The notes under the pieces are model-generated. The model had not been told where the DNA came from. It was given only the letters and a program-made list of their open reading frames with translations, and made no database searches. Of a stretch of DNA of 64,000 bases, positions 53,622 through 64,000 are shown piece by piece. Numbering within the stretch: the first letter of the stretch is position 1; each line of letters opens with the position of its first letter. This stretch comes from an uncultured Ignavibacteriales bacterium (GTDB lineage Bacteria; Zixibacteria; MSB-5A5; GN15; FEB-12), in assembly GCA_964544635.1 (NCBI GenBank), contig CAZJCK010000001.1, positions 31,384 to 95,383 of the forward strand, in the 5' to 3' direction. Made by a program: the position numbers and the translations under genes.

Positions 53622-55325
53622 TCAGGCCAGCGTTGCCGAGCCTTCAGCCAGGGCGATCCTGGCTGTACCTTCGGGCGGAACCCTCGGGAACGTAATGGTA
53701 AAGGTGGTGCCCTTGCCGACTGTCGACTCGGCAGTCAGCAGAAGATCGAGCATCGAGCAGATGCGGTGCACAATCGACAACCCCAGCCCGGTGCCGTTGC
53801 GCTTGGTGGAGAAGAACGGCTCATACATCCGGCTGAGCTGATCCTCGGTCATACCCGGACCGTTGTCCATCAGCTCGAGATTGACATAAGCGTCATCCTC
53901 GGTACCGCGAAGGCGAATCGTCACCGTCCCGACACCGCCACCGAACGCTTCCACCGCATTCAGCATCAGGTTCAGAAGCACCTGCTTGATTAAGCCCTCT
54001 TCTCCGGCCACATAAACAATCGATTCGTCAGTATCGAAATCAAAGCCTACCCATTCCTGATAGACTTCGTCGTGACGCACCAGTTCGAGAACATCGGACA
54101 CCAGGTGACACAACTCGACTTTCTGGAAGGTGGTTCGGTCAAGACGGGCATAGTTCAGGAAATCATGGAGGATCCGGTTCAGGCGGTTCGACTCTTTCAT
54201 GATCAGTTCCATCAGCCGCGCGTTCTCCCCCTCGAGCTTTAACTCGGCGTTCAGCACCTCGACCGAACCCGACAGCGCCGCCAGCGGGTTGCGGATCTCA
54301 TGGGCAATCGATGCCGACATCTCGCCCACCGCCGCCAGGCGATCGGCGACGCGCACTTTCTCTTCGAGCTTCTTCGCCTCGGTCAGGTCGGAGAAGATGG
54401 CGATGACGCCACGGAAATCACCGGAATGATCGGTCAACAGCGATGTCGATACGCCCAACGGCACCCGTTTGTGCTCGACCCCCTTGATGTCCATTTCACG
54501 GCGCGGGTGGGCCACCCCCTCCAGCACGCCGTCCATGAGGCAGGCGGCCAGTTCCGGCATGCGCTCGGCAAAGACCTCCTCGCACGACAACCCGCTGATC
54601 GCCGTCTCACTGAAACCGAGGATGCGTTCTGCCGCCCGGTTGAAATAGAGAATGTGCCCCTTGTGATCGACCGTCAGGAGCCCGGAGTTCAGGTGGCGCA
54701 GAATATCATCGGTGTCCAGTCGCGCCAGCTGCAACGCCCGCGAGGCATCGTGCAACCGACGGTCCTTTTGCTCGAGGTGTTCCGCCAGGTAACCCGAGGT
54801 GAACGCTATCAGGTAGAAAATCAACAGGTGCAAAAAGACCGCGTAGAAGACATGATCGGGCGTTTGGGTGATGACACGCCACATATCGCCGGCCATCGGC
54901 GGCTCGGCGGCAAGAGCCAGCCCGAACCAGACGGTGACGACATACGATGCCGACACTATCGTCGCCACCAGCAGCGTACCGACCAACCGGTACGCCATAG
55001 CCGCCGACACAATGGTGAGCAGGAAGAGCGCCGAATAGGTGGAGTTCGAGCCGCCCGAGTTTATCACCAGCAGCGACTCGATGCCGATCTCCGAGACGAA
55101 CTGCAGGGCGATTATCGACTTGGTCAAAAGCGGCAGGGAACCGCGTTTGTCCAGCGCATACAGCAGCGCGAAACCGAGCGTCAGCAGCGAATAGATTATC
55201 AGCGGCGCTTCCAGGCTGCGGGGCAGGCGAAACGACACCAGCACCACCGCCAGAAGGATGACGTATGATGTCATGCGCAGGGCAAGAAACCAGCCGCGCC
55301 GCTCTACAAAGTTCAGTGTCGCCAT
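53622..55325 (-). CDS. Sensor histidine kinase, PilS-like architecture (multi-TM N-domain, PAS, HisKA, HATPase_c)
   Basis: About 6 N-terminal TM helices, PAS-like LNSGLLTVDHKGHILYFNRAAERILG, H-box MSASIAHEIRNPLAAL, N-box LLNLMLNAVEAF, G-boxes DNGPGM and GTGLGLSIV. No response regulator gene nearby. Confidence 0.85.
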   Translation of the reverse strand: MATLNFVERRGWFLALRMTSYVILLAVVLVSFRLPRSLEAPLIIYSLLTLGFALLYALDKRGSLPLLTKSIIALQFVSEIGIESLLVINSGGSNSTYSALFLLTIVSAAMAYRLVGTLLVATIVSASYVVTVWFGLALAAEPPMAGDMWRVITQTPDHVFYAVFLHLLIFYLIAFTSGYLAEHLEQKDRRLHDASRALQLARLDTDDILRHLNSGLLTVDHKGHILYFNRAAERILGFSETAISGLSCEEVFAERMPELAACLMDGVLEGVAHPRREMDIKGVEHKRVPLGVSTSLLTDHSGDFRGVIAIFSDLTEAKKLEEKVRVADRLAAVGEMSASIAHEIRNPLAALSGSVEVLNAELKLEGENARLMELIMKESNRLNRILHDFLNYARLDRTTFQKVELCHLVSDVLELVRHDEVYQEWVGFDFDTDESIVYVAGEEGLIKQVLLNLMLNAVEAFGGGVGTVTIRLRGTEDDAYVNLELMDNGPGMTEDQLSRMYEPFFSTKRNGTGLGLSIVHRICSMLDLLLTAESTVGKGTTFTITFPRVPPEGTARIALAEGSATLA

Positions 55326-55396: not shown

Positions 55397-56593
55397 TCAG
55401 ATCTTACCGATGATGTCGAACATCGGCAGGTACATCGCAATCAGGATGCCGCCAATGACCACACCCATAAACACGATGATGATCGGTTCAATCACCGATG
55501 TCAACGCGGTCACGGCTTCATCCACCTCTTCATCGTAGAAGTCCGAGATCTTGTTCAGCATCTCGTCAAGACCACCGGTCTTTTCACCGACCGAAATCAT
55601 CTGTGTCACCATCGGTGGAAAGACGCCGGTTTCCTTCAGCGGTCCGGTGATCGTATCACCCTCGGCAATCGACAGCACCGACTTGTTGATGGCGTTGGCA
55701 ATAACCTGGTTGCCCGCTGTCTTGGCCGTAATTTCCAGGGCGTCGAGAATCGACACACCCGACGCCAAAAGCGTACCGAGAGTACGGGTGAACCGCGCAA
55801 CCGACGACTTTCGCGTCAGGTTGCCCAGCACCGGCAACCGCAGGAGCATCCGGTCGGTCGCCAGGGCGCCCTGCGGTGTCTTCTTCCACCACATGAAAAC
55901 GCCGATCACGCCCATCAGCCCAAAGAACAGGTAGACCATGTTGGCCTGCAGGAAGTTGGAGATCCCGAGCACAATCTGGGTCGGCGCCGGCAGTTCGGCA
56001 TTGAGACCGCCGAACATGTTGGCGAACACCGGCACGATGTATGCGAGCATACCGATCGTGACCGCCGTCGCGACCACCACGATCACCGCCGGATAGACCA
56101 TCGCACCCTTGACCTTGCGCACCAGGGCATCGGCCTTTTCACGGTAGACCGCCAGTCGCACCAGGATGGCATCGAGGGCGCCGCCGATTTCACCGGCCTC
56201 CACCATGTTGGTATACAGGCCGTCGAAAACCTTCGGGTGACGCGCCAGCGCCTCGGACAGCGTGGCACCACCCTGTACGTGATCGCGAACCTGGCCGATG
56301 AGCTTGGCCAGTTCCTTGTTCTCAGTCTGGGCGGCCATAATATCGAGACACTGCACCATCGGCAAACCGGCGCCGATCATGGTTGCAAACTGCCGGGTAA
56401 AACGGGAAACCTCAACCTTCTTGATTCCGGTGCCGATCTTGATGTTGATTTCCGGCGCCTTCTTGCTGATTGACTTGACCAGGATGCGGTTCTGGCGCAG
56501 GATGCGCTCCAGATCCGCCCGGCTCTTGGCCTTCAGTTCCCCCTGGACCGCGGTTCCGGCAAGTGTCTTTCCTTTGTATTCAAAGACTGGCAT
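55397..56593 (-). CDS. pilC: Type IV pilus platform protein PilC (GspF family)
   Basis: MPVFEYKGKTLAGTAVQGELKA..., two T2SSF repeats (FTRQFATMIGAGLPMVQCL and FTRTLGTLLASGVSILDAL), 3 TM, 398 aa. Confidence 0.85.
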   Translation of the reverse strand: MPVFEYKGKTLAGTAVQGELKAKSRADLERILRQNRILVKSISKKAPEINIKIGTGIKKVEVSRFTRQFATMIGAGLPMVQCLDIMAAQTENKELAKLIGQVRDHVQGGATLSEALARHPKVFDGLYTNMVEAGEIGGALDAILVRLAVYREKADALVRKVKGAMVYPAVIVVVATAVTIGMLAYIVPVFANMFGGLNAELPAPTQIVLGISNFLQANMVYLFFGLMGVIGVFMWWKKTPQGALATDRMLLRLPVLGNLTRKSSVARFTRTLGTLLASGVSILDALEITAKTAGNQVIANAINKSVLSIAEGDTITGPLKETGVFPPMVTQMISVGEKTGGLDEMLNKISDFYDEEVDEAVTALTSVIEPIIIVFMGVVIGGILIAMYLPMFDIIGKI

Positions 56594-56618
56594 CGAACAA
56601 TCCCTTTCTTAAACCGGC

Positions 56619-57695
56619 TTAACTGAAAGCCGGTGTCTTGTTACGCGACAACATCTCGCTCAGCTCCTGGGGGTTGGAACTGTAGTTCATCGCGTCGTTG
56701 AGGGCAATTTTTCCGGTCTGGTACAGCTCAGCCAGCGACTGGTTCATGGTCTTCATACCATACTTTTGTCCCGACTGAATCATCGAATAGACCTGGTGAA
56801 TTTTATCGTCACGGACCAGCGCCCGGATCGCCGGCGTTACAATCAGCATCTCCATCGCCAGCGCCCGTCCGCCGCCGATCTTCGGTATCAACGTCTGCGA
56901 CACAATTGCCTGCAGGCAGAACGACAGAGCCGTGCGAATCTGCTCCTGCTGGTTCGACGGAAAGGCGTCGATGATACGGTTGATCGATTCCGCCGCCGAG
57001 TTGGTGTGCAACGTTCCGAAGGCGAGGTGACCGGTTTCGGAAATCGACAGCGCCGACTCCATCGTCTCGAGGTCGCGCATCTCACCGATCAGGACCACGT
57101 CCGGATCCTCACGCAGCGCATACTTCAGCGCCGCCCCAAACGATTCGGTATCGGAATACACTTCACGCTGGTTGACCAGCGCCATTTGGTGACGGTGCAG
57201 GTACTCGATCGGATCTTCAACCGTCAGGATGTGAACCGGGCGCTCCTTGTTGATCTTGTCGATCAGCGCCGCCAGTGTTGTCGACTTGCCCGATCCGGTC
57301 GGACCGGTCACCAAAACCAGCCCGCGCGGCAACTTGGCGAGTTCCGAGACTACTTTCGGCAGCCCCAGCTCCTCAAACGTCTGCACCTTGTACGGAATCT
57401 GGCGGAGCGCAACGGCGACATTTCCCCGCTGCATGAACATGTTGCAGCGGAAGCGACTCATCGATTCGATACCGAACGAAAAGTCGAGTTCCGAGGCCTG
57501 CTCGAATTTGAGCTTCTGCTTTTCACTCAGCATGGAGTAAGCCAGCTTCTTGGTCGTCTCGGCGGTCAGCATATCATGCTCCAGCCGCTGGAGCTTGCCG
57601 TCGACCCGGACGACCGGCGGCGAACCAGTCGTGAGGTGTAAGTCAGATGCGCCCATCTTGACCATCTGCTCAAGCAGTTCGCGTAATGTCACCAT
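56619..57695 (-). CDS. pilT: Twitching-motility retraction ATPase PilT
   Basis: GASDLHLTTGSPPVVRVDGKL, Walker A GPTGSGKST, Asp box, Walker B VVLIGEMRD, His box GHLAFGTLHT. 358 aa. Confidence 0.9.
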   Translation of the reverse strand: MVTLRELLEQMVKMGASDLHLTTGSPPVVRVDGKLQRLEHDMLTAETTKKLAYSMLSEKQKLKFEQASELDFSFGIESMSRFRCNMFMQRGNVAVALRQIPYKVQTFEELGLPKVVSELAKLPRGLVLVTGPTGSGKSTTLAALIDKINKERPVHILTVEDPIEYLHRHQMALVNQREVYSDTESFGAALKYALREDPDVVLIGEMRDLETMESALSISETGHLAFGTLHTNSAAESINRIIDAFPSNQQEQIRTALSFCLQAIVSQTLIPKIGGGRALAMEMLIVTPAIRALVRDDKIHQVYSMIQSGQKYGMKTMNQSLAELYQTGKIALNDAMNYSSNPQELSEMLSRNKTPAFS

Positions 57696-57791
57696 ATATC
57701 TCTCCTGGCTCTCCTGAAATGGGGCTGTGGTGTACGGACTCGTGTCTTTCTCTTAATATCGGCGTTTATTGCCGAATCTTGAACCGGGAGA

Positions 57792-57839
57792 GTTGGAAAA
57801 TGCCCTGTAAGTTACTGAAAGAACGGCGGTTGGAAAATG
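57792..57839. repeat. Two copies of an 11-nt direct repeat (GTTGGAAAATG; minus strand CATTTTCCAAC) in the pilB-pilT spacer
   Basis: Copies at 57792-57802 and 57829-57839, 37 nt start to start. The second abuts the pilB stop codon. Confidence 0.5.
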
Positions 57840-59543
57840 TTAGCCGCCGCCGCCCGAAGTCACCGCATATACCTCGTCGATCGACACCATCCCCTGCTTC
57901 ATCTTGTCCACCGCGCACATCCGCAGGCTGAACATCCCCTCCTCCAACGCTGTCTTGCGGATCTCGCTGTCGGAGGACTGGGCCAGGATATGGTTCTCGA
58001 TCGCCGTGGTTATCGGCATGACCTCGTAAATACCGGTTCGCCCCGCCAGGCCGGTATTGTTACAGTCGTTGCAGCCGCGCCCGCGAAAAGCACGGATATT
58101 CCGCAGGATGTCCTGCGGCACATTCAGGCCGTCGACCTGCTCCGGAGAAAGATTAATCTCTTCCTTACAGCTCTGGCAGATCTTGCGCATCATACGCTGC
58201 GCCATGATCAGCTTGGTCGCCGAAGCCACCAGGTAGAACGGCACGCCCATGTCGATCAGACGGTTGATCGACGACGGGGCGTCGTTGGTATGCAGGGTGC
58301 TGAATACCAGATGACCGGTCAGGGCGGCACGAATCGCGATCTCCGCCGTATCACCGTCACGAATCTCACCGACCATGACGATGTCCGGATCCTGACGCAG
58401 GAACGAGCGCAGCGCCGCCGAAAAGGTGAGGCCGATGTCCGAACGAACCGCCACCTGGTTGATGCCGTCAAAGTTGAACTCGACCGGGTCCTCGGCAGTC
58501 ATGATGTTCACGTCCACCGTATTGATCTGCTTCAGCGCCGAATACAGCGTCGTCGTCTTACCCGAACCGGTCGGCCCGGTCACGAGGATGATGCCGTACG
58601 GCAAGTGAATATGCTTGGTGAACTTGTTGAGGTCCTCCTGGCGGAAGCCCAGCTTGGTCATGTCGACCATCAGGGCCATCGGATCGAGAATTCGCATCAC
58701 GACCTTTTCGCCGAAAATGGTCGGCAGTACCGACACACGGAGGTCGACGGTACGCCCCGAGATCTTGATCTTGATACGACCGTCCTGCGGCAAACGCCGC
58801 TCGGAGATGTCGAGGTCGGCCATGATCTTCACGCGCGACACGATCGCCGCCCGGTACTTGAAAGGCAGCGGCGCCATCTCGCGGAGGTCGCCGTCGACAC
58901 GGTAGCGCACGCGTATGCGCTTTTCGTACTGCTCGAGGTGAATATCGGAGGCGCCGATGCGGATGGCGTCGGCGATAATCGAGTCGACCAGCTTGACCAG
59001 CGGCTTGTCCTGGATGGCCGACAGCAGATCCGACTCGGTCGGACCCTCCTCCTGCGATACCACTTCGAGATCACCGTCGGCCTCCAGCCCCTTCACGATT
59101 TCCGAGAGCGCACCGGAATCCTGGTAGTAGGCCTCGATCGCCTTTTCAATCGCCTTCTCCGGCGAAATGACCGGCTGCACCGTACAACCGGTAATGAACT
59201 TGATGGCGTCGAGCACATAGATGTTGTTGGGGTCGCTGATGGCAACCAGCAGGTTCTTGTTGAGACGCGAGATCGCGATGACCTTGAACTTCCGCGCGAT
59301 GTCGAGCGGGATCAGTTTGACCACCTCGGGATTCAACTCGATATCACCGAGGCGCAGGGCGCCGATCTTCAGGTGCTTGCCGATGAATTGCGCCAGCTCG
59401 TCGTCGCTCTCCACCGCACCGATCTTGATCAGCGCCGATTCAAACTTTTCTTTATGTTCCTTGGCGAACGCCTGGGCTTGCTGAGCCTGCTCCTCAGTGA
59501 TCTTCCCCGCTTTTACCAGTATGGAACTCAGTTCTGTGGACAT
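57840..59543 (-). CDS. pilB: Type IV pilus assembly (extension) ATPase PilB (GspE family)
   Basis: N-terminal T2SSE_N domain (LVKAGKITEEQAQQAQAF), Walker A GPTGSGKTT, Walker B IVMVGEIRD, GHLVFSTLHTND, and tetracysteine CQSC...CNDC. Confidence 0.9.
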   Translation of the reverse strand: MSTELSSILVKAGKITEEQAQQAQAFAKEHKEKFESALIKIGAVESDDELAQFIGKHLKIGALRLGDIELNPEVVKLIPLDIARKFKVIAISRLNKNLLVAISDPNNIYVLDAIKFITGCTVQPVISPEKAIEKAIEAYYQDSGALSEIVKGLEADGDLEVVSQEEGPTESDLLSAIQDKPLVKLVDSIIADAIRIGASDIHLEQYEKRIRVRYRVDGDLREMAPLPFKYRAAIVSRVKIMADLDISERRLPQDGRIKIKISGRTVDLRVSVLPTIFGEKVVMRILDPMALMVDMTKLGFRQEDLNKFTKHIHLPYGIILVTGPTGSGKTTTLYSALKQINTVDVNIMTAEDPVEFNFDGINQVAVRSDIGLTFSAALRSFLRQDPDIVMVGEIRDGDTAEIAIRAALTGHLVFSTLHTNDAPSSINRLIDMGVPFYLVASATKLIMAQRMMRKICQSCKEEINLSPEQVDGLNVPQDILRNIRAFRGRGCNDCNNTGLAGRTGIYEVMPITTAIENHILAQSSDSEIRKTALEEGMFSLRMCAVDKMKQGMVSIDEVYAVTSGGGG

Positions 59544-59611
59544 GGTCTCTCGCGTTGCTTACTTTTTATTCGGGAGGTCGCGACGCTGCCCGCGCGCCGC
59601 AACCGCCAGAC

Positions 59612-60115
59612 TCAGTCCTGGAAGATATCGTCGAGCGCATCCGACGCGCCGCTGGCGAATTCTTCACTTACCTTGCTCTTCGATTCCTCGCGATCGGCTG
59701 TCTTGATATTCTCGAATATCTTGCCCAGCTCATCGGCCGTTTCCTTGGCGTACAGCCGCACCATACCGATGGTGGTCCGGTCGTCGAAGATGACAACCAG
59801 GATCGACCGCTCGCCGACCAGCGACATGTGAATGTGATCCTTCTTGCCCTGGTGGAACAACACCGAGAATTCCGGTTCGCCGACCAGTCGGGCGATTTCC
59901 TTGGTCGAGGCAAAGGACCCCGCCAGCAAGGCCGCCAGCGCGGTGGTATCGAGTGAAGCGGTGAATCCCTGACGGGTAATCAGGTGACCGTCCTTATCGA
60001 CCAACAACGCGCACTTGGCTTCTGCTCCCTTGAGCATCTTGGAGATAAGGGCCTCGATCTGGCCGATCTCCTCCTCGTAAATAATCAGATTGTCGTCTGC
60101 CATGTATGCCTCCAA
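59612..60115 (-). CDS. mglB: MglB (Roadblock/LC7 GTPase-activating partner of MglA)
   Basis: Colinear by eye with M. xanthus MglB: LIIYEEEIGQIEALISKM...AKCALLVDKDGHLITRQG...DTTALAALLAG...FHQGKKDHIHMSLVGERSILVVIFDDRTTIGMVRLYAKETADELGKIF...DALDDIFQD. Confidence 0.85.
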   Translation of the reverse strand: MEAYMADDNLIIYEEEIGQIEALISKMLKGAEAKCALLVDKDGHLITRQGFTASLDTTALAALLAGSFASTKEIARLVGEPEFSVLFHQGKKDHIHMSLVGERSILVVIFDDRTTIGMVRLYAKETADELGKIFENIKTADREESKSKVSEEFASGASDALDDIFQD

Positions 60116-60120
60116 GATCG

Positions 60121-61218
60121 CTACTTAATTCCAAACAACCGTTTAAAGAATCCCCGCTTCTTACCGGCGTTGCGCTTGCGCAAGGACGGCGCCATGCTGG
60201 GGCCTGACTGCGGCGCCGATCCGACCGAATCGCCGGTATCGTCCACCATCTTCTTCTCTATCGCACTATCGTCATCCGCCTGCGCCTCCGGGGCAAAGCT
60301 GGTCGACGACAATTTCTTCTGCTGCGGGAGGCCGCCGGTGCCGCTGCTGCCGGGATACGGCCGGTAGCCGATATCGGGCTGCTCCTCGGCCGCCTCCTGG
60401 GACTCCGGCTCCGGCTCATTCGACGGCGCCGGTTGCGGCGTCGCCTCGGTCGCCGGCGGCGACATCGTCGCGGTCGTCGCCACTTCGCCCGACGCTGATG
60501 CCGCTGCTCCCGGCGATGACTGCGGCAGCGGCTGCGACTGGTTCTGGTTCGGCACCACGACCCGGCCGGAACCGCCGACCAGGGTTTCGCCGGTCGACGA
60601 TGCCGTGGCTGTGGCCGTCGCCTTCCGCGTTTCACCGGTCGACTTGGCCTTCTCCAGCACCAGCTTGATGATCATCTTCAACGTATCAAACACTCCCTGG
60701 CCCTGCGGCGCCACCGCCGTAAAGTACGGCCGACCGGTCGGATTGAGCGCCTGCTGCAACTCCTCGATCGACAGGATGTTGGGCAGGTCAACCTTGTTGT
60801 ACTGGATTACCAGCGGAATGTCGTCAATGTCGTAGCCATACTCGCGAAGGTTCTCTTCGAGGTTGGACAACGATTCGATATTTTCGTCGAGCTTGTCGGC
60901 CTGTGAATCAGCAACAAACACCAGGCCGTCGACGCCACGCAACACCAGCTTGCGCGTGGCGTTGTAATAGACCTGCCCGGGCACCGTGTACAGCTGGAAC
61001 TTCGCCTGGAAGCCGTTGATGGTGCCGATGTTGATCGGCAGGAAGTCGAAGTACAGCGTGCGGTCCGCTTCAGTCGCAAGCGAAATCAAATCACCCCGCG
61101 TGCTCCCCGGTACCTTGGCGTGCACATACTGCAGGTTTGTCGTCTTCCCCGACAAGCCGGGACCGTAGTAGACGATCTTGCAGCTCACTTCCCGTGATGA
61201 ATAGTTAATTGATACCAT
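60121..61218 (-). CDS. mglA: MglA-type Ras-like GTPase with ~170-aa low-complexity C-terminal extension and MinD-like terminal amphipathic motif
   Basis: KIVYYGPGLSGKTTNLQY (P-loop), DRTLYFDFLP (switch I), LYTVPGQVYYNATRK (switch II), VIQYNKVDLP. After ~195 aa there is S/T/P/A/Q/E-rich sequence ending RKRNAGKKRGFFKRLFGIK*. Confidence 0.85.
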   Translation of the reverse strand: MVSINYSSREVSCKIVYYGPGLSGKTTNLQYVHAKVPGSTRGDLISLATEADRTLYFDFLPINIGTINGFQAKFQLYTVPGQVYYNATRKLVLRGVDGLVFVADSQADKLDENIESLSNLEENLREYGYDIDDIPLVIQYNKVDLPNILSIEELQQALNPTGRPYFTAVAPQGQGVFDTLKMIIKLVLEKAKSTGETRKATATATASSTGETLVGGSGRVVVPNQNQSQPLPQSSPGAAASASGEVATTATMSPPATEATPQPAPSNEPEPESQEAAEEQPDIGYRPYPGSSGTGGLPQQKKLSSTSFAPEAQADDDSAIEKKMVDDTGDSVGSAPQSGPSMAPSLRKRNAGKKRGFFKRLFGIK

Positions 61219-61246: not shown

Positions 61247-61588
61247 TTAGCTGCCAGTGCGTATCCGGGTACACGCGTTCTTCATTTCCAGTCGGATCAA
61301 CCCGATGTTGACATCCTTCTCGGTCGCCACCACCAGCAGGCCGAGACCGGCATCGGCGAAAAACAGCTTCGCATCATCAGCCTCGATCGTCACCTGCTTC
61401 AGGGGACTGGTCTCCAGACGGTCCAGCGACTTCTGGATATTGGCGCTGATCGAAGCCGCCAGGGCGCCGACGGTTTCACTCTCAAACGCTTCCTTCATAT
61501 CTGCGGCGATCACGATACCGTCGTTGCCGACGACCATCGACCCGGAGATACCGGATGTCTTGTTCAGTTCACTCAGCACTTCATACAT
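61247..61588 (-). CDS. Stand-alone Roadblock/LC7 domain protein
   Basis: 113 aa. LNKTSGISGSMVVGNDGIVIAAD...ETVGALAASISANIQ...LKQVTIEADDAKLFFADAGLGLLVVATEKDVNIGLIRLEM. Confidence 0.75.
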   Translation of the reverse strand: MYEVLSELNKTSGISGSMVVGNDGIVIAADMKEAFESETVGALAASISANIQKSLDRLETSPLKQVTIEADDAKLFFADAGLGLLVVATEKDVNIGLIRLEMKNACTRIRTGS

Positions 61589-62618
61589 ATTTCGTCTCCG
61601 CGTTCACGGTGGTCAAATGACCATACCGTTCTGCCATATATTTCCTGATCATATCATTCGCCTGGTTGATACGAATATTGAGTACGTCGCCCTGGTGGCG
61701 CTCGGCGAAAATGACCAGCACCAGGTGCTCGTCACCGACCACGCTCACGCGAGCGTCAGCGAAATGCAGATCGAGCCGCTCGGGCGCGCCCCACTCGGCC
61801 CGTTCCCCCAGTGTCCGGTGCATGTCCAGCATCGACAGCGCATACGGCGCCCAGTCTTCCGGCACCCAGTTGCGCCTGGCAAACTGACCGAGGATCAAAC
61901 CTTCGTGATCGATCACGGCGGCAAAGTGCACCGAACCATCTTCCCCGACATACCGTGCCGCCCGGTCGAAACCGTTGGCCTCGCCGCCGGCGGCGTGCTG
62001 CTCACGCTGCGGCTCGCGACCCGGCTTGGATACATTCTGCCAGACCGGCTGGCGTTCCTCCGGCGCCGGCGACAGTTCGCGCCGGGCTTCCGCACGACGC
62101 ACCGGCGCCGACGGCTGCTCGGAGTACTCCTGCGCGACAATAGTCTCACGCTTCACGGTTGCACGCTCCTGCTGATTGTCGACATTCGACGCTTCGGCTT
62201 CAGGCTCAGGCTGCAGTCGTTTCATTGATCGCTCCACCCGACCGAGAATCGTGTTCAACGCAAAGGGCGCCAGACCGGCCTGGATCATCAGACCCGGCAG
62301 GTAGGCGAACAGCCCGAGGTCGAGTGAGATCTGCAGGTTCATGCCGTACATGAGTGACACCGTCAGCCCGAACAACGCGCCCAGCGCCAGCCGAAAGACC
62401 AGGCAGACCGCCGCCCATTGCACCAGCTGCATCAGCGACGCCCGCCGGTTGAACAGGTAAATGACGAAGCCGAACCAGGCCAGCTGCAGGGCAATGCCCA
62501 CCCACGTAGCACGGGCCAGCTCCAGCCCCCACATGGCAGGGAACACGATCAGCGGGACTACAAGTGCCGCTGCCGATATCCCCGCAAACATCATTGTTGT
62601 GCGCCGGGTAAATTCCAT
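61581..62618 (-). CDS. Membrane-anchored protein with C-terminal Roadblock/LC7-like domain
   Basis: About 4-5 N-terminal TM helices (FAGISAAALVVPLIVFPAMW, VGIALQLAWFGFVIYLF, ...), a charged linker, then VHFAAVIDHEGLILGQFA...APYALSMLDM...LDLHFADARVSVVGDEHLVLVIFAERHQGDVLNIRINQ. 8-nt overlap with the next gene. Confidence 0.6.
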   Translation of the reverse strand: MEFTRRTTMMFAGISAAALVVPLIVFPAMWGLELARATWVGIALQLAWFGFVIYLFNRRASLMQLVQWAAVCLVFRLALGALFGLTVSLMYGMNLQISLDLGLFAYLPGLMIQAGLAPFALNTILGRVERSMKRLQPEPEAEASNVDNQQERATVKRETIVAQEYSEQPSAPVRRAEARRELSPAPEERQPVWQNVSKPGREPQREQHAAGGEANGFDRAARYVGEDGSVHFAAVIDHEGLILGQFARRNWVPEDWAPYALSMLDMHRTLGERAEWGAPERLDLHFADARVSVVGDEHLVLVIFAERHQGDVLNIRINQANDMIRKYMAERYGHLTTVNAETKYV

Positions 62619-62628
62619 GTATGCACTC

Positions 62629-63534
62629 TCAATCTTCCGGCCGGTACTTGTCCAGCAGGTTGTCGATTTTCATCCTCAGTCCGCCGAGATTCACTCCCGG
62701 TTCACAGACAAACACAAACGCACCGTCATCGACGCGCACCAGGTAAAAGGTCGGTTCGTCGGTCTCGATCAAAATCGAGCCGATATGCCCGAACGATGCT
62801 TCGACCATATCACGGTTGAGTTCGCTGCCGATCTCACCTATGGTGGCACCGCAGGCCATCGGATCCATCCGCAAAGTCCATTCCTTGTCGACGACCAGGC
62901 CCTCATTGTTAATGAACAGTGCGCCGCCAATGCCCGGATAGGCGATACTGCGCTTCAGGATCTCCGATCCGGTCATGGTCGTCGCCGCTTTCGGTCTTTC
63001 GACGACGGTTTCGCTGCCGGTCAATACCCGGTGGACCACACTCGGTTTACCGCCCGATACCGGACTGTACTGGGGCACAGCCGCGACCGTTTCGCCCATC
63101 TCGCGCGCCTGCTCTTCCGGTATCTTCTGGGCGATGTCCAGCAAACGCGAAATCTGTTCGTCGTTCGGGTCGTTCCGGTGCAGTCGCTTCAACAGCTTGA
63201 CGGCCCGTTCAAAATCTCCCCGAAAGATGAATATTTCAGCCAGCAGCAGGTCGGTAGCCCGCGACGGACCATCCAGATCCTGTGCCTTCTTAACTTCTAT
63301 CTCAGCCCAGTCGTACAGCCCGCGATCCAGGTTGATTTTCGACATCACCAGGTGAGCCGAACCGTAACTCGGATGAATCCGCAAACCGTTCTGGCAGACC
63401 TGAAACGCCTTGTCCAGGTCCCCCCGTTTACGATAGGCCTCAGCCAACGCCGCAAAGATCTGCGAGTTGGGATCAACCTCGAGGATCTTCTGACACTTGG
63501 CTATACGATCGTCTATTTGGGCAGTATCGATCAT
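62629..63534 (-). CDS. TPR-repeat protein with C-terminal Roadblock/LC7-like domain
   Basis: TPR-like FAALAEAYRKRGDLDKAFQVCQNGLRIHP, LLLAEIFIFRGDFERAVKLLKRLHRNDP. The C-terminus IGGALFINNEGLVVDKEW...ACGATIGEIGSEL...ILIETDEPTFYLVRVDDGAFVFVCEPGVNLGGLRMKI is Roadblock-like. Confidence 0.65.
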   Translation of the reverse strand: MIDTAQIDDRIAKCQKILEVDPNSQIFAALAEAYRKRGDLDKAFQVCQNGLRIHPSYGSAHLVMSKINLDRGLYDWAEIEVKKAQDLDGPSRATDLLLAEIFIFRGDFERAVKLLKRLHRNDPNDEQISRLLDIAQKIPEEQAREMGETVAAVPQYSPVSGGKPSVVHRVLTGSETVVERPKAATTMTGSEILKRSIAYPGIGGALFINNEGLVVDKEWTLRMDPMACGATIGEIGSELNRDMVEASFGHIGSILIETDEPTFYLVRVDDGAFVFVCEPGVNLGGLRMKIDNLLDKYRPED

Positions 63535-63598
63535 TGAGTGCTCGTAACCTGCTTATGCATAATCGGTTAACCGGCTCAGCAACTTGCAACAGCGCGTA

Positions 63599-63639: not shown

Positions 63640-63999
63640 TCAGCCGAGGACTCGCTTGGTTTCAAATATACCGTACACAAATAGTCCCACGCTGACAACT
63701 AATAATGCCGGCACCGCAAACGTTGGCAACGAAAACAATTCGACCTGGTGGCCCAGCTGAGCCATCTGCGTGATGATCAATACACCCAGCGCCAGGACAA
63801 ATACCTGCCAGGTACGGGCCAGGGTGCCACCCTTCACCAGCGACAGGACCCGCACGCCACCAACCACGCCGACCACCGCCGCGATCAGCACGGCCAGGTT
63901 TAGAAGGTTCGGCGCACTGGTAATGACTGCGAAATTGGCGGCGTGGGCCGACTGGGTAAGTACCGCCGAGGCGGCACCGGCTGCAATGAGTTTCTTCAA
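63640..63999 (-). CDS. Small membrane protein (signal peptide + ~3 TM); start at TTG one base from the window edge, may extend further
   Basis: (M)KKLIAAGAASAVLTQSAHAANF..., hydrophobic helices LLNLAVLIAAVVGVVGGV, WQVFVLALGVLIITQMA, FAVPALLVVSVGLFVYGIF. Confidence 0.4.
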   Translation of the reverse strand: MKKLIAAGAASAVLTQSAHAANFAVITSAPNLLNLAVLIAAVVGVVGGVRVLSLVKGGTLARTWQVFVLALGVLIITQMAQLGHQVELFSLPTFAVPALLVVSVGLFVYGIFETKRVLG

Positions 64000-64000
64000 C

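Follow-up and report, generated by a model that had tools for sequence, protein, structure and literature searches.

MglA is the textbook Ras-like polarity switch of bacteria, and is treated as a soluble protein that is brought to the poles by other proteins. The canonical MglA of Myxococcota, Gemmatimonadota, Nitrospirota and others spans 192-209 amino acids (aa) in the loci compared here; these proteins are tailless, are described as cytosolic, and are usually encoded after mglB, the gene for their Roadblock GTPase-activating protein (GAP). In Myxococcus xanthus, MglA regulates the formation of type IVa pili (T4aP; PMC11580455). A July 2026 preprint on the archaeal GTPase ArcoA explicitly calls the MglA family cytosolic, and the survey of MglA by Wuichet and Sogaard-Andersen (2014), which left out sequences longer than 240 aa, does not mention a membrane anchor for MglA. 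The present analysis concerns 64,000 nucleotides (nt) of DNA from an uncultured Ignavibacteriales bacterium with a Zixibacteria lineage in GTDB (assembly GCA_964544635.1, contig CAZJCK010000001.1, positions 31,384 to 95,383 of the forward strand), a stretch referred to as the window over its whole length. Unlike the canonical genes, its mglA lies in the order Roadblock-mglA-mglB and encodes, behind the G domain, a 170-aa tail with a putative membrane anchor that resembles the membrane-targeting sequence (MTS) of Escherichia coli MinD. Judged from sequence, the protein belongs to a large family of tailed, putatively membrane-anchored MglA. As an earlier note made from the sequence of this DNA had supposed of such a fusion, no description of it was found in the searchable full-text literature, outside which most subscription journals fall, so that a prior mention is possible.

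All features described below lie on the minus strand of the window unless stated otherwise. The gene is a single complete open reading frame (ORF) encoding 365 aa (60121..61218; ATG at 61218, TAG at 60121-60123), an extent supported by the ORF list, by structure matches and by 120 full-length homologues (the best 120 database matches of 320-400 aa from NCBI, JGI, ENA and Logan assemblies). Residues 1-195 (60634..61218) constitute the G domain, as delimited by alignment to M. xanthus MglA and by invariant residues. In a PDB search, residues 3-196 matched the M. xanthus structures 5ymx/6h17 end to end (E 4e-80), and Thermus thermophilus MglA (3t12) was also matched by the G domain (E 2e-72). As the MglA alignment begins at residue 3, an N-terminal extension is absent, and with it any helix of the Arf/Sar/ArcoA type. 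The P-loop (G19-T27), the intrinsic arginine finger R53, T78 and Q82 within TVPGQ, and N141-K-x-D144 are all present, and R53, T78, Q82, N141 and D144 are invariant among 51 aligned homologues. The G3 position carries Thr instead of Asp together with the catalytic Gln (T78-V-P-G-Q82), as in group-1 MglA. The window protein thus resembles those of M. xanthus and T. thermophilus in its G domain, P-loop, R53, T78, Q82 and adjoining MglB Roadblock GAP, and the former also in a link to type IV pili.

By homology, the window protein is a group-1 MglA; its 365 aa fail solely the 240-aa limit of the 2014 survey, which is a criterion of size and not of homology. With all MglA catalytic residues kept, the product is, by prediction, a functional group-1 switch with a GTP cycle. 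Matches in Pfam, NCBIfam and PDB were to Arf, Ras and MglA only, and no MinD/ParA ATPase fold was found; on this comparison the protein is neither a MinD nor an Arf nor a prenylated Ras, and what it is predicted to have in common with them is a way of reaching the membrane. The assignment of the first ~195 aa to MglA in the earlier note is borne out by these matches and by the cognate mglB, which begins 17 nt downstream, and the strings that it quoted (GPGLSGKTT, DRTLYFDFLP, LYTVPGQVYYNATRK, QYNKVDLP and, from the terminus, RKRNAGKKRGFFKRLFGIK) are all found in the translation. Its statement that canonical MglA ends near residue 195 agrees with the M. xanthus and T. thermophilus proteins, which terminate at 195-203 aa.

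Beyond the G domain, the reading frame continues through a tail of 170 aa (residues 196-365), 117 of which (69%) are A, S, P, G, T, E or Q; the span previously given for this extension, 60121-60633, corresponds exactly to codons 196-365 and the TAG stop. The first part of the tail is a variable, acidic low-complexity spacer (residues 196-284; 60367..60633), recognised by its predicted coil (pLDDT ~50) and by the spread in the distance from the G domain to the motif RP[YF]PG, which ranges from 45 to 125 aa (sd 14.4) among the 120 homologues. When the last 25 aa are left aside, the tails of these homologues have a median net charge of -6. The second part is a C-terminal module of constant length (residues 285-365; 60124..60366; 76-86 aa in the 120 homologues, sd 1.6) with the consensus YRPYPGS...KKISPxxFxP...PxMAPSLRRRxxxKKRGFFKRLFGIK, in which KKISPxxFxP is semi-conserved in the 51-sequence alignment. 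It opens with the short linear motif Y285-R-P-Y-P-G290 (60349..60366), where R286, P287, P289 and G290 are invariant and which recurs as RP[YF]PG in all 120 homologues, 76-86 aa from the C-terminus. A MAPSLRKR island follows (residues 342-349; 60172..60195), present in 119 of the 120 homologues and beginning 23-29 aa (median 24) from their C-terminus. The module closes with the polybasic amphipathic terminus K353-K365 (KKRGFFKRLFGIK; 60124..60162), a putative membrane-targeting sequence by its charge, its hydrophobic moment (muH) and its match to MinD.

In an AlphaFold2 model built from the 51-sequence alignment (mean pLDDT 61, with the switch regions of the G domain poorly modelled), residues 201-357 are coil with a pLDDT of ~50. 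The description of the tail as a long flexible linker in the earlier note is therefore in keeping with this prediction, but does not extend to the last ~80 aa: since these are constant in length, the tail is not a uniform linker, and a plain linker is ruled out by this constancy together with the conserved motifs found there.

The window protein terminates in ...AGKKRGFFKRLFGIK, and E. coli K-12 MinD, as read from NC_000913.3, in ...EEEKKGFLKRLFGG, which confirms the MinD end KKGFLKRLFGG that had been given when the likeness was first pointed out. The two termini share KK-x-GF[LF]KRLFG, in both cases at the extreme C-terminus, and have near-equal hydrophobic moments (best 9-mer muH 0.64 in the window protein and 0.62 in E. 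coli MinD). The MinD sequence KGFLKRLFGG has been employed experimentally as a transplantable membrane tether (PMC5471200). However, the hosts and settings differ, as the window terminus belongs to a Ras-like GTPase and that of MinD to a ParA/MinD ATPase, the window helix follows a 157-aa disordered tail whereas that of MinD sits directly on the fold, and the preceding basic stretch carries +9 in the window protein as against +1 in MinD. The net charge of +9 over the last 25 aa is also the median of the homologues, in which it does not fall below +7. When projected by us on a 100-degree helical wheel, F357, L361, F358, F362 and I364 lie within an arc of 160 degrees, opposite K359, G363 and R360. 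These five residues are the hydrophobics among the last nine, and the end is not a transmembrane (TM) tail, in which a single TM helix would lie within ~30 aa of the C-terminus, being classified as polybasic and amphipathic. The tail is without cysteine over its 170 aa and the C-terminus reads ...LFGIK, so that there is no CAAX, CC or CXC motif. When the six reading frames of 1.32 Mb of loci were scanned with a regular expression for this type of terminus, long mglA genes and E. coli minD were the sole matches among ORFs of 100 aa or more; within the 64-kb window no second ORF with a MinD-like end was found beside mglA, and a PDB search with the last 32 aa gave no match.

The 120 homologues are 52-79% identical to the window protein, except for one 100% match, and 119 of them cover the query fully. 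The reading frame of tail and terminus is kept in every one of them, which shows the in-frame low-complexity extension of ~170 aa to be real, and some relatives sit on contigs of 1.0-9.2 Mb. Recurrence of the terminus in related genomes, which had been proposed as a check, was likewise observed: the homologues end in the pattern ...MAPS(L/I)(R/K)RR-x3-KKRGFFKRLFG(I/V/L/M)(K/R), with a GFF..LF-type terminus in 119 and the exact string RGFFKRLFGIK in 67, and in the last 11 residues no variation is seen at R-11, F-9, L-5 and G-3. Two ORFs that overlap the gene (60258-60635 on the minus and 59984-60367 on the plus strand) were given no weight, because the conserved reading frame is that of mglA.

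For a wider comparison, genome collections were scanned and 1.84 billion cluster representatives were searched. The short canonical MglA branch separately from the long-tailed forms when their G domains are placed in a neighbour-joining tree. All 150 representatives nearest the window G domain (225-764 aa) carry this domain N-terminally, and 149 exceed 230 aa in length. Among these 149, 43 have amphipathic and 22 have TM ends, so that at least 65 (~44%) end in a recognisable membrane anchor by sequence tests that just 0.17% (amphipathic) and 0.07% (TM) of internal tail windows pass. Deeper Zixibacteria-type relatives terminate in KKKKKGFFLFRLFGKK, KKKFSLFGWLKRLGRK, KKKKKRFFLFRWFSRDKD or GGFLWRWIQKFAGRR, and diverged ends such as FSLFGWLKRLGRK, FFLFRWF, GFLWRWIQKF and GFLSKLFNK keep the polybasic, aromatic and amphipathic character, with net charges of +5 to +10 and muH of 0.44-0.99. 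In Fibrobacterota (Chitinivibrionales, Chitinispirillaceae and metagenome-assembled genomes (MAGs) of Fibrobacter sp.) the proteins end in ...YFTSVNTDRQRKKxKRPVNPK...GGFLSKLFNKDxP, and 104 of 115 pass the test for a polybasic amphipathic terminus. In Planctomycetota, a polybasic stretch is followed by a C-terminal TM helix in 109 of 113 proteins, with a median of 10 residues beyond the helix; two of these TM-ended MglA are encoded on contigs of 7.9 and 9.2 Mb, and the orthologues keep the Roadblock-mglA-mglB context. Because charge and hydrophobic periodicity persist while the sequence drifts, and because one clade has a TM segment in place of the helix, the terminus is better understood as a lipid-binding anchor than as a specific docking peptide, and this exchange of anchor type on one scaffold is, at the level of sequence, the strongest argument for the membrane tethering proposed in the earlier note. 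The reference survey admitted no sequence above 240 aa, which is apparently why the long-tailed class escaped notice.

Other types of tail were also encountered in this comparison. MglA proteins of 400-620 aa (P0172, P0180, P0188, P0204, P0216, P0220, P0231 and P0239) end in ...REIxVPVxLxPEDLxxGVVLKLxI...RRAA, a conserved segment that has the look of a small module of beta-strands and not of a membrane anchor. The homologues from BRC1/Sumerlaeota (357-418 aa; L021 10001-11131, L063 5586-6842 and L066 10001-11074) have in common a tail segment of the type W-x-G/R-x-K/R-I/L-G-S/R... with no obvious anchor, and this segment may be a folded C-terminal domain. Motifs of the form [RKQE]P[YF]x[GP] occur in 32 of the 149 tails of other long MglA groups, compared to 13.7 +/- 3.3 in shuffled tails; related RP[YF]PG-type motifs are present in P0139, P0152, P0164, P0171, P0183 and others, several of them as acidic ends of the form I/L-D-I/L-K/Q-P-F/Y-x-G-x-D.

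The conserved terminus and its counterparts in other phyla suggest that the C-terminus of the window MglA probably holds the protein on the inner membrane, at its cytoplasmic face. The basic residues would bind anionic phospholipids, while F357, F358, L361, F362 and I364 would insert into the bilayer interface. Anchored in this manner, MglA would be confined to two-dimensional diffusion, and the tail would give its G domain a reach of ~10 nm (from a rough polymer scaling of ~160 disordered residues), and the co-transcribed MglB would run the GTP/GDP cycle as GAP. Three extra Roadblock proteins encoded in the same cluster, one of them an integral membrane protein, may, purely by inference, serve as guanine nucleotide exchange factor (GEF) or scaffold. 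The nucleotide state would then decide which membrane-proximal effectors engage; the analogy with M. xanthus makes the motors of the type IV pilus the likeliest of these, and the conserved tail motifs (RP[YF]PG and MAPSLRRR) would most likely dock operon partners, e.g. TPR or Roadblock proteins.

Several observations weigh against such a tether or against its output as outlined. For the last 11 aa, 2374 of 10000 composition-preserving shuffles (24%) attain the observed muH of 0.49. Thus, of the helical wheel and moment analysis proposed in the earlier note, the clustering of the hydrophobics in one arc stood, whereas the moment did not stand out; the amphipathicity statistics are therefore set aside as evidence, and the support for the terminus rests on conservation, position and comparison. 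The AlphaFold2 model has a terminal helix of only four residues (358-361), with a pLDDT of ~55. Unless dimerised, one copy of the E. coli MinD MTS has only weak affinity for membranes, and autonomous membrane binding here would consequently depend on the added basic charge and the additional Phe and Ile. It was also as a tandem pair that the MinD MTS was deployed in PMC5471200. Furthermore, the organism is known from metagenome assemblies only. With regard to the output, pil genes adjoin mglA in Zixibacteria-type loci only; they are absent from L081, the sole locus examined of another amphipathic-ended lineage, and were not detected in the Planctomycetota loci. The output may hence be more general than pili.

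In a variant that overlaps partly with the tether, anchoring would be regulated: the helix, weak alone, would hold MglA only when the protein is clustered or GTP-bound, through avidity like that of the MinD dimer, or has its tail motifs released from the G domain, in the manner of the Arf or ArcoA helix, and MglA-MglB would constitute a cycle of membrane attachment and detachment, possibly a self-organising one. The motif is that of MinD, whose binding needs dimerisation, and the fixed-length module with its invariant motifs could dock back on the G domain. The tandem MTS tag in PMC5471200 would also fit. Conversely, the charge of +9 in the last 25 aa points to autonomous electrostatic binding, the disordered spacer of variable length (45-125 aa) makes coupling to the nucleotide pocket improbable, the Planctomycetota orthologues are permanently held by a TM helix, and the AlphaFold2 model, albeit of low confidence, has no contact between tail and G domain. 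On balance, regulated anchoring seems unlikely.

Still less probable is a role of the C-terminus as a protein-docking peptide, comparable to the C-terminal peptide of FtsZ, that binds a Roadblock, TPR or pilus motor partner. The layout, in which a disordered linker joins a globular domain to an invariant terminal peptide, would suit it, RGFFKRLFG is unusually strictly conserved within Zixibacteria, and TPR and Roadblock genes adjoin mglA. However, outside the core clade the sequence drifts and the physicochemical character alone is kept, a sister clade has a TM helix instead, the same pattern is a proven membrane anchor in MinD, and the internal RP[YF]PG and MAPSLRRR motifs fit docking better. 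That a lost stop or frameshift after codon ~195 joined MglA to non-coding sequence, an assembly or annotation artefact in favour of which the low-complexity composition of the tail speaks and nothing else, is practically inconceivable and refuted by the comparative data, given that 120 independent homologues have the same frame, internal motifs and terminus, that all 150 best cluster representatives carry an N-terminal G domain (149 being longer than 230 aa), and that relatives are found on contigs of 1.0-9.2 Mb.

The probable C-terminal tether invites comparison with GTPases outside the MglA family. In eukaryotic Ras, Rho and Rab proteins (e.g. K-Ras4B), a small G domain is followed by a flexible variable C-terminus, a polybasic cluster and a hydrophobic membrane anchor. 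The window MglA has the same layout of G domain, variable tail, polybasic stretch and putative anchor, a resemblance of function and not of homology; it differs in that the lack of a CAAX motif or cysteine leaves no site for prenylation, the anchor being a peptide helix (a TM segment in Planctomycetota), and in a linker that is ~8x longer. ArcoA/DipA of Haloferax volcanii and Arf/Sar1 are likewise small GTPases that bind the membrane via an amphipathic helix of their own, as is predicted for the window protein. ArcoA shows this mode of binding to be workable in prokaryotes (July 2026 preprint), and Asgard Arf proteins are another example of amphipathic-helix GTPases (PMC11914678). In these proteins, however, the helix is N-terminal, next to the G domain and nucleotide-coupled, whereas that of the window MglA is C-terminal behind a long linker, and ArcoA has a SepF-like partner in place of MglB and the Roadblock proteins. 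The Ragulator-Rag system is similar in that several Roadblock proteins are encoded with the GTPase, one of them itself predicted to be membrane-anchored, although the sequence kinship observed is limited to the Roadblock fold; by this analogy, the membrane Roadblock protein of the window is a candidate for the missing GEF or scaffold.

Should the tether be real, a membrane attachment resembling the hypervariable region would not be a eukaryotic invention within the Ras superfamily, and the account of how MglA finds its cellular place would differ in several phyla. The cluster would then represent a compact module in which an anchored GTPase is combined with a GAP and a membrane Roadblock protein and physically linked to type IV pilus motors. 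The terminal 13-25 aa are in addition a candidate membrane tag beside the MinD MTS. A bolder proposal, which we regard as doubtful, is that the long-MglA clade (including Zixibacteria, Fibrobacterota and Planctomycetota) arrived independently at the arrangement known from eukaryotes, in which a G domain is followed by a hypervariable tail, a polybasic stretch and an anchor, and that, with MglB acting as GAP and a membrane-embedded Roadblock complex as GEF or scaffold, it would form a self-organising membrane polarity or patterning system like Min, Arco or Cdc42, which would position type IV pili without a RomR/RomX-type landmark.

The mglA gene is part of a conserved block, all on the minus strand and with intergenic distances of -8 to 144 nt. 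Its order is 119-aa protein, TPR-Roadblock, 4-TM Roadblock, 113-aa Roadblock, mglA, mglB, pilB, pilT, pilC and PilS-like kinase. The mglB gene (59612..60103), identified by Robl_LC7 and MglB matches, likely encodes 163 aa. The ORF list places its start at TTG 60115; the ATG at 60103, which lies 5 nt after GGAGG (60109-60113) and 17 nt past the mglA stop and gives a product beginning MADDNLII..., is more likely. The product matches M. xanthus MglB (6izw_B) with E 4e-38 and the NCBIfam MglB model with E 8e-27 at 94 bits, which is under the curated cut-off of 200 bits.

Directly upstream of mglA, a single-domain Roadblock protein of 113 aa is encoded (61247..61588; Robl_LC7 E 1e-12, structures 7yh1 and 7f8m), a gene that is conserved in L001-L019, L021, L024, L025 and L031. 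It is preceded by the gene for a 345-aa protein (61581..62618) with an N-terminal hydrophobic region (~4 TM helices as read by eye), a linker and a C-terminal Roadblock-like domain, assigned by hhalign and synteny. Pfam gave no match to the C-terminus of this protein, and its Roadblock kinship was seen by profile-profile comparison with the 113-aa protein (hhalign probability 95%, E 4e-8). Further upstream, a 301-aa TPR protein (62629..63534), assigned by TPR families, hhalign and synteny, also has a C-terminal Roadblock-like domain, which aligned to the 113-aa protein with a probability of 99.1% (E 1.7e-18) and gave a weak Robl_LC7 match (E 0.01). By these matches, the operon encodes four Roadblock-domain proteins, and one of them is predicted to be membrane-embedded. 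At the head of the cluster lies the gene for a small hydrophobic protein of 119 aa (63640..63999), matched in 13 of the loci L001-L019.

Directly downstream of mglB is the pil block (55397..59543), with T2SSE, MshEN and T2SSF family matches; it comprises pilB (57840-59543), pilT (56619-57695) and pilC (55397-56593), assigned by family match and conserved order. The conserved block ends with a PAS histidine kinase (53622..55325), which is termed PilS-like as its homologue in L083 has 6TM_PilS. Within the extent of each locus, the order Roadblock-mglA-mglB-pil is kept in the 19 related loci; these derive from Zixibacteria MAGs and from some bins with an Ignavibacteria or Terriglobales label, and several stop at contig ends. 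Judged from these relatives, the window probably derives from a Zixibacteria MAG. Bins labelled Ignavibacteriales, Ignavibacteria or Terriglobales (L001, L002, L007, L012, L015-L017 and L019) contain the Zixibacteria-type cluster, with a pilB product that is 65-80% identical to that of the window where it is reached. These Ignavibacteria and Terriglobales labels may be unreliable, or the cluster may be common to lineages of the Fibrobacteres-Chlorobi-Bacteroidetes (FCB) group.

Gene order also varies with the class of MglA: the short canonical genes are arranged as mglB-mglA, whereas in the long-tailed loci (Zixibacteria type, BRC1 and Planctomycetota) mglA precedes mglB (L022-L035 vs L001-L031). 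An extra small Roadblock gene is located upstream of mglA in most of the long-tailed loci compared. In two distant lineages, a PATAN (PatA_N) protein is encoded a few genes upstream of Roadblock-mglA-mglB (L083 6091-7293, from Zixibacteria, and L081 5304-6374); the equivalent position in the window falls beyond base 64000. PATAN genes near mglA and mglB have been noted before (PMC4316618), and this location agrees with that, as it does with the reported contact of PATAN regulators with the pilus motor (preprint 10.1101/2021.06.11.447907). Finally, long ORFs (323-664 aa) run antisense to pilB and the Roadblock genes on the plus strand, at 57837-59831, 61257-62228 and 62461-63537, and are taken as non-coding shadows.

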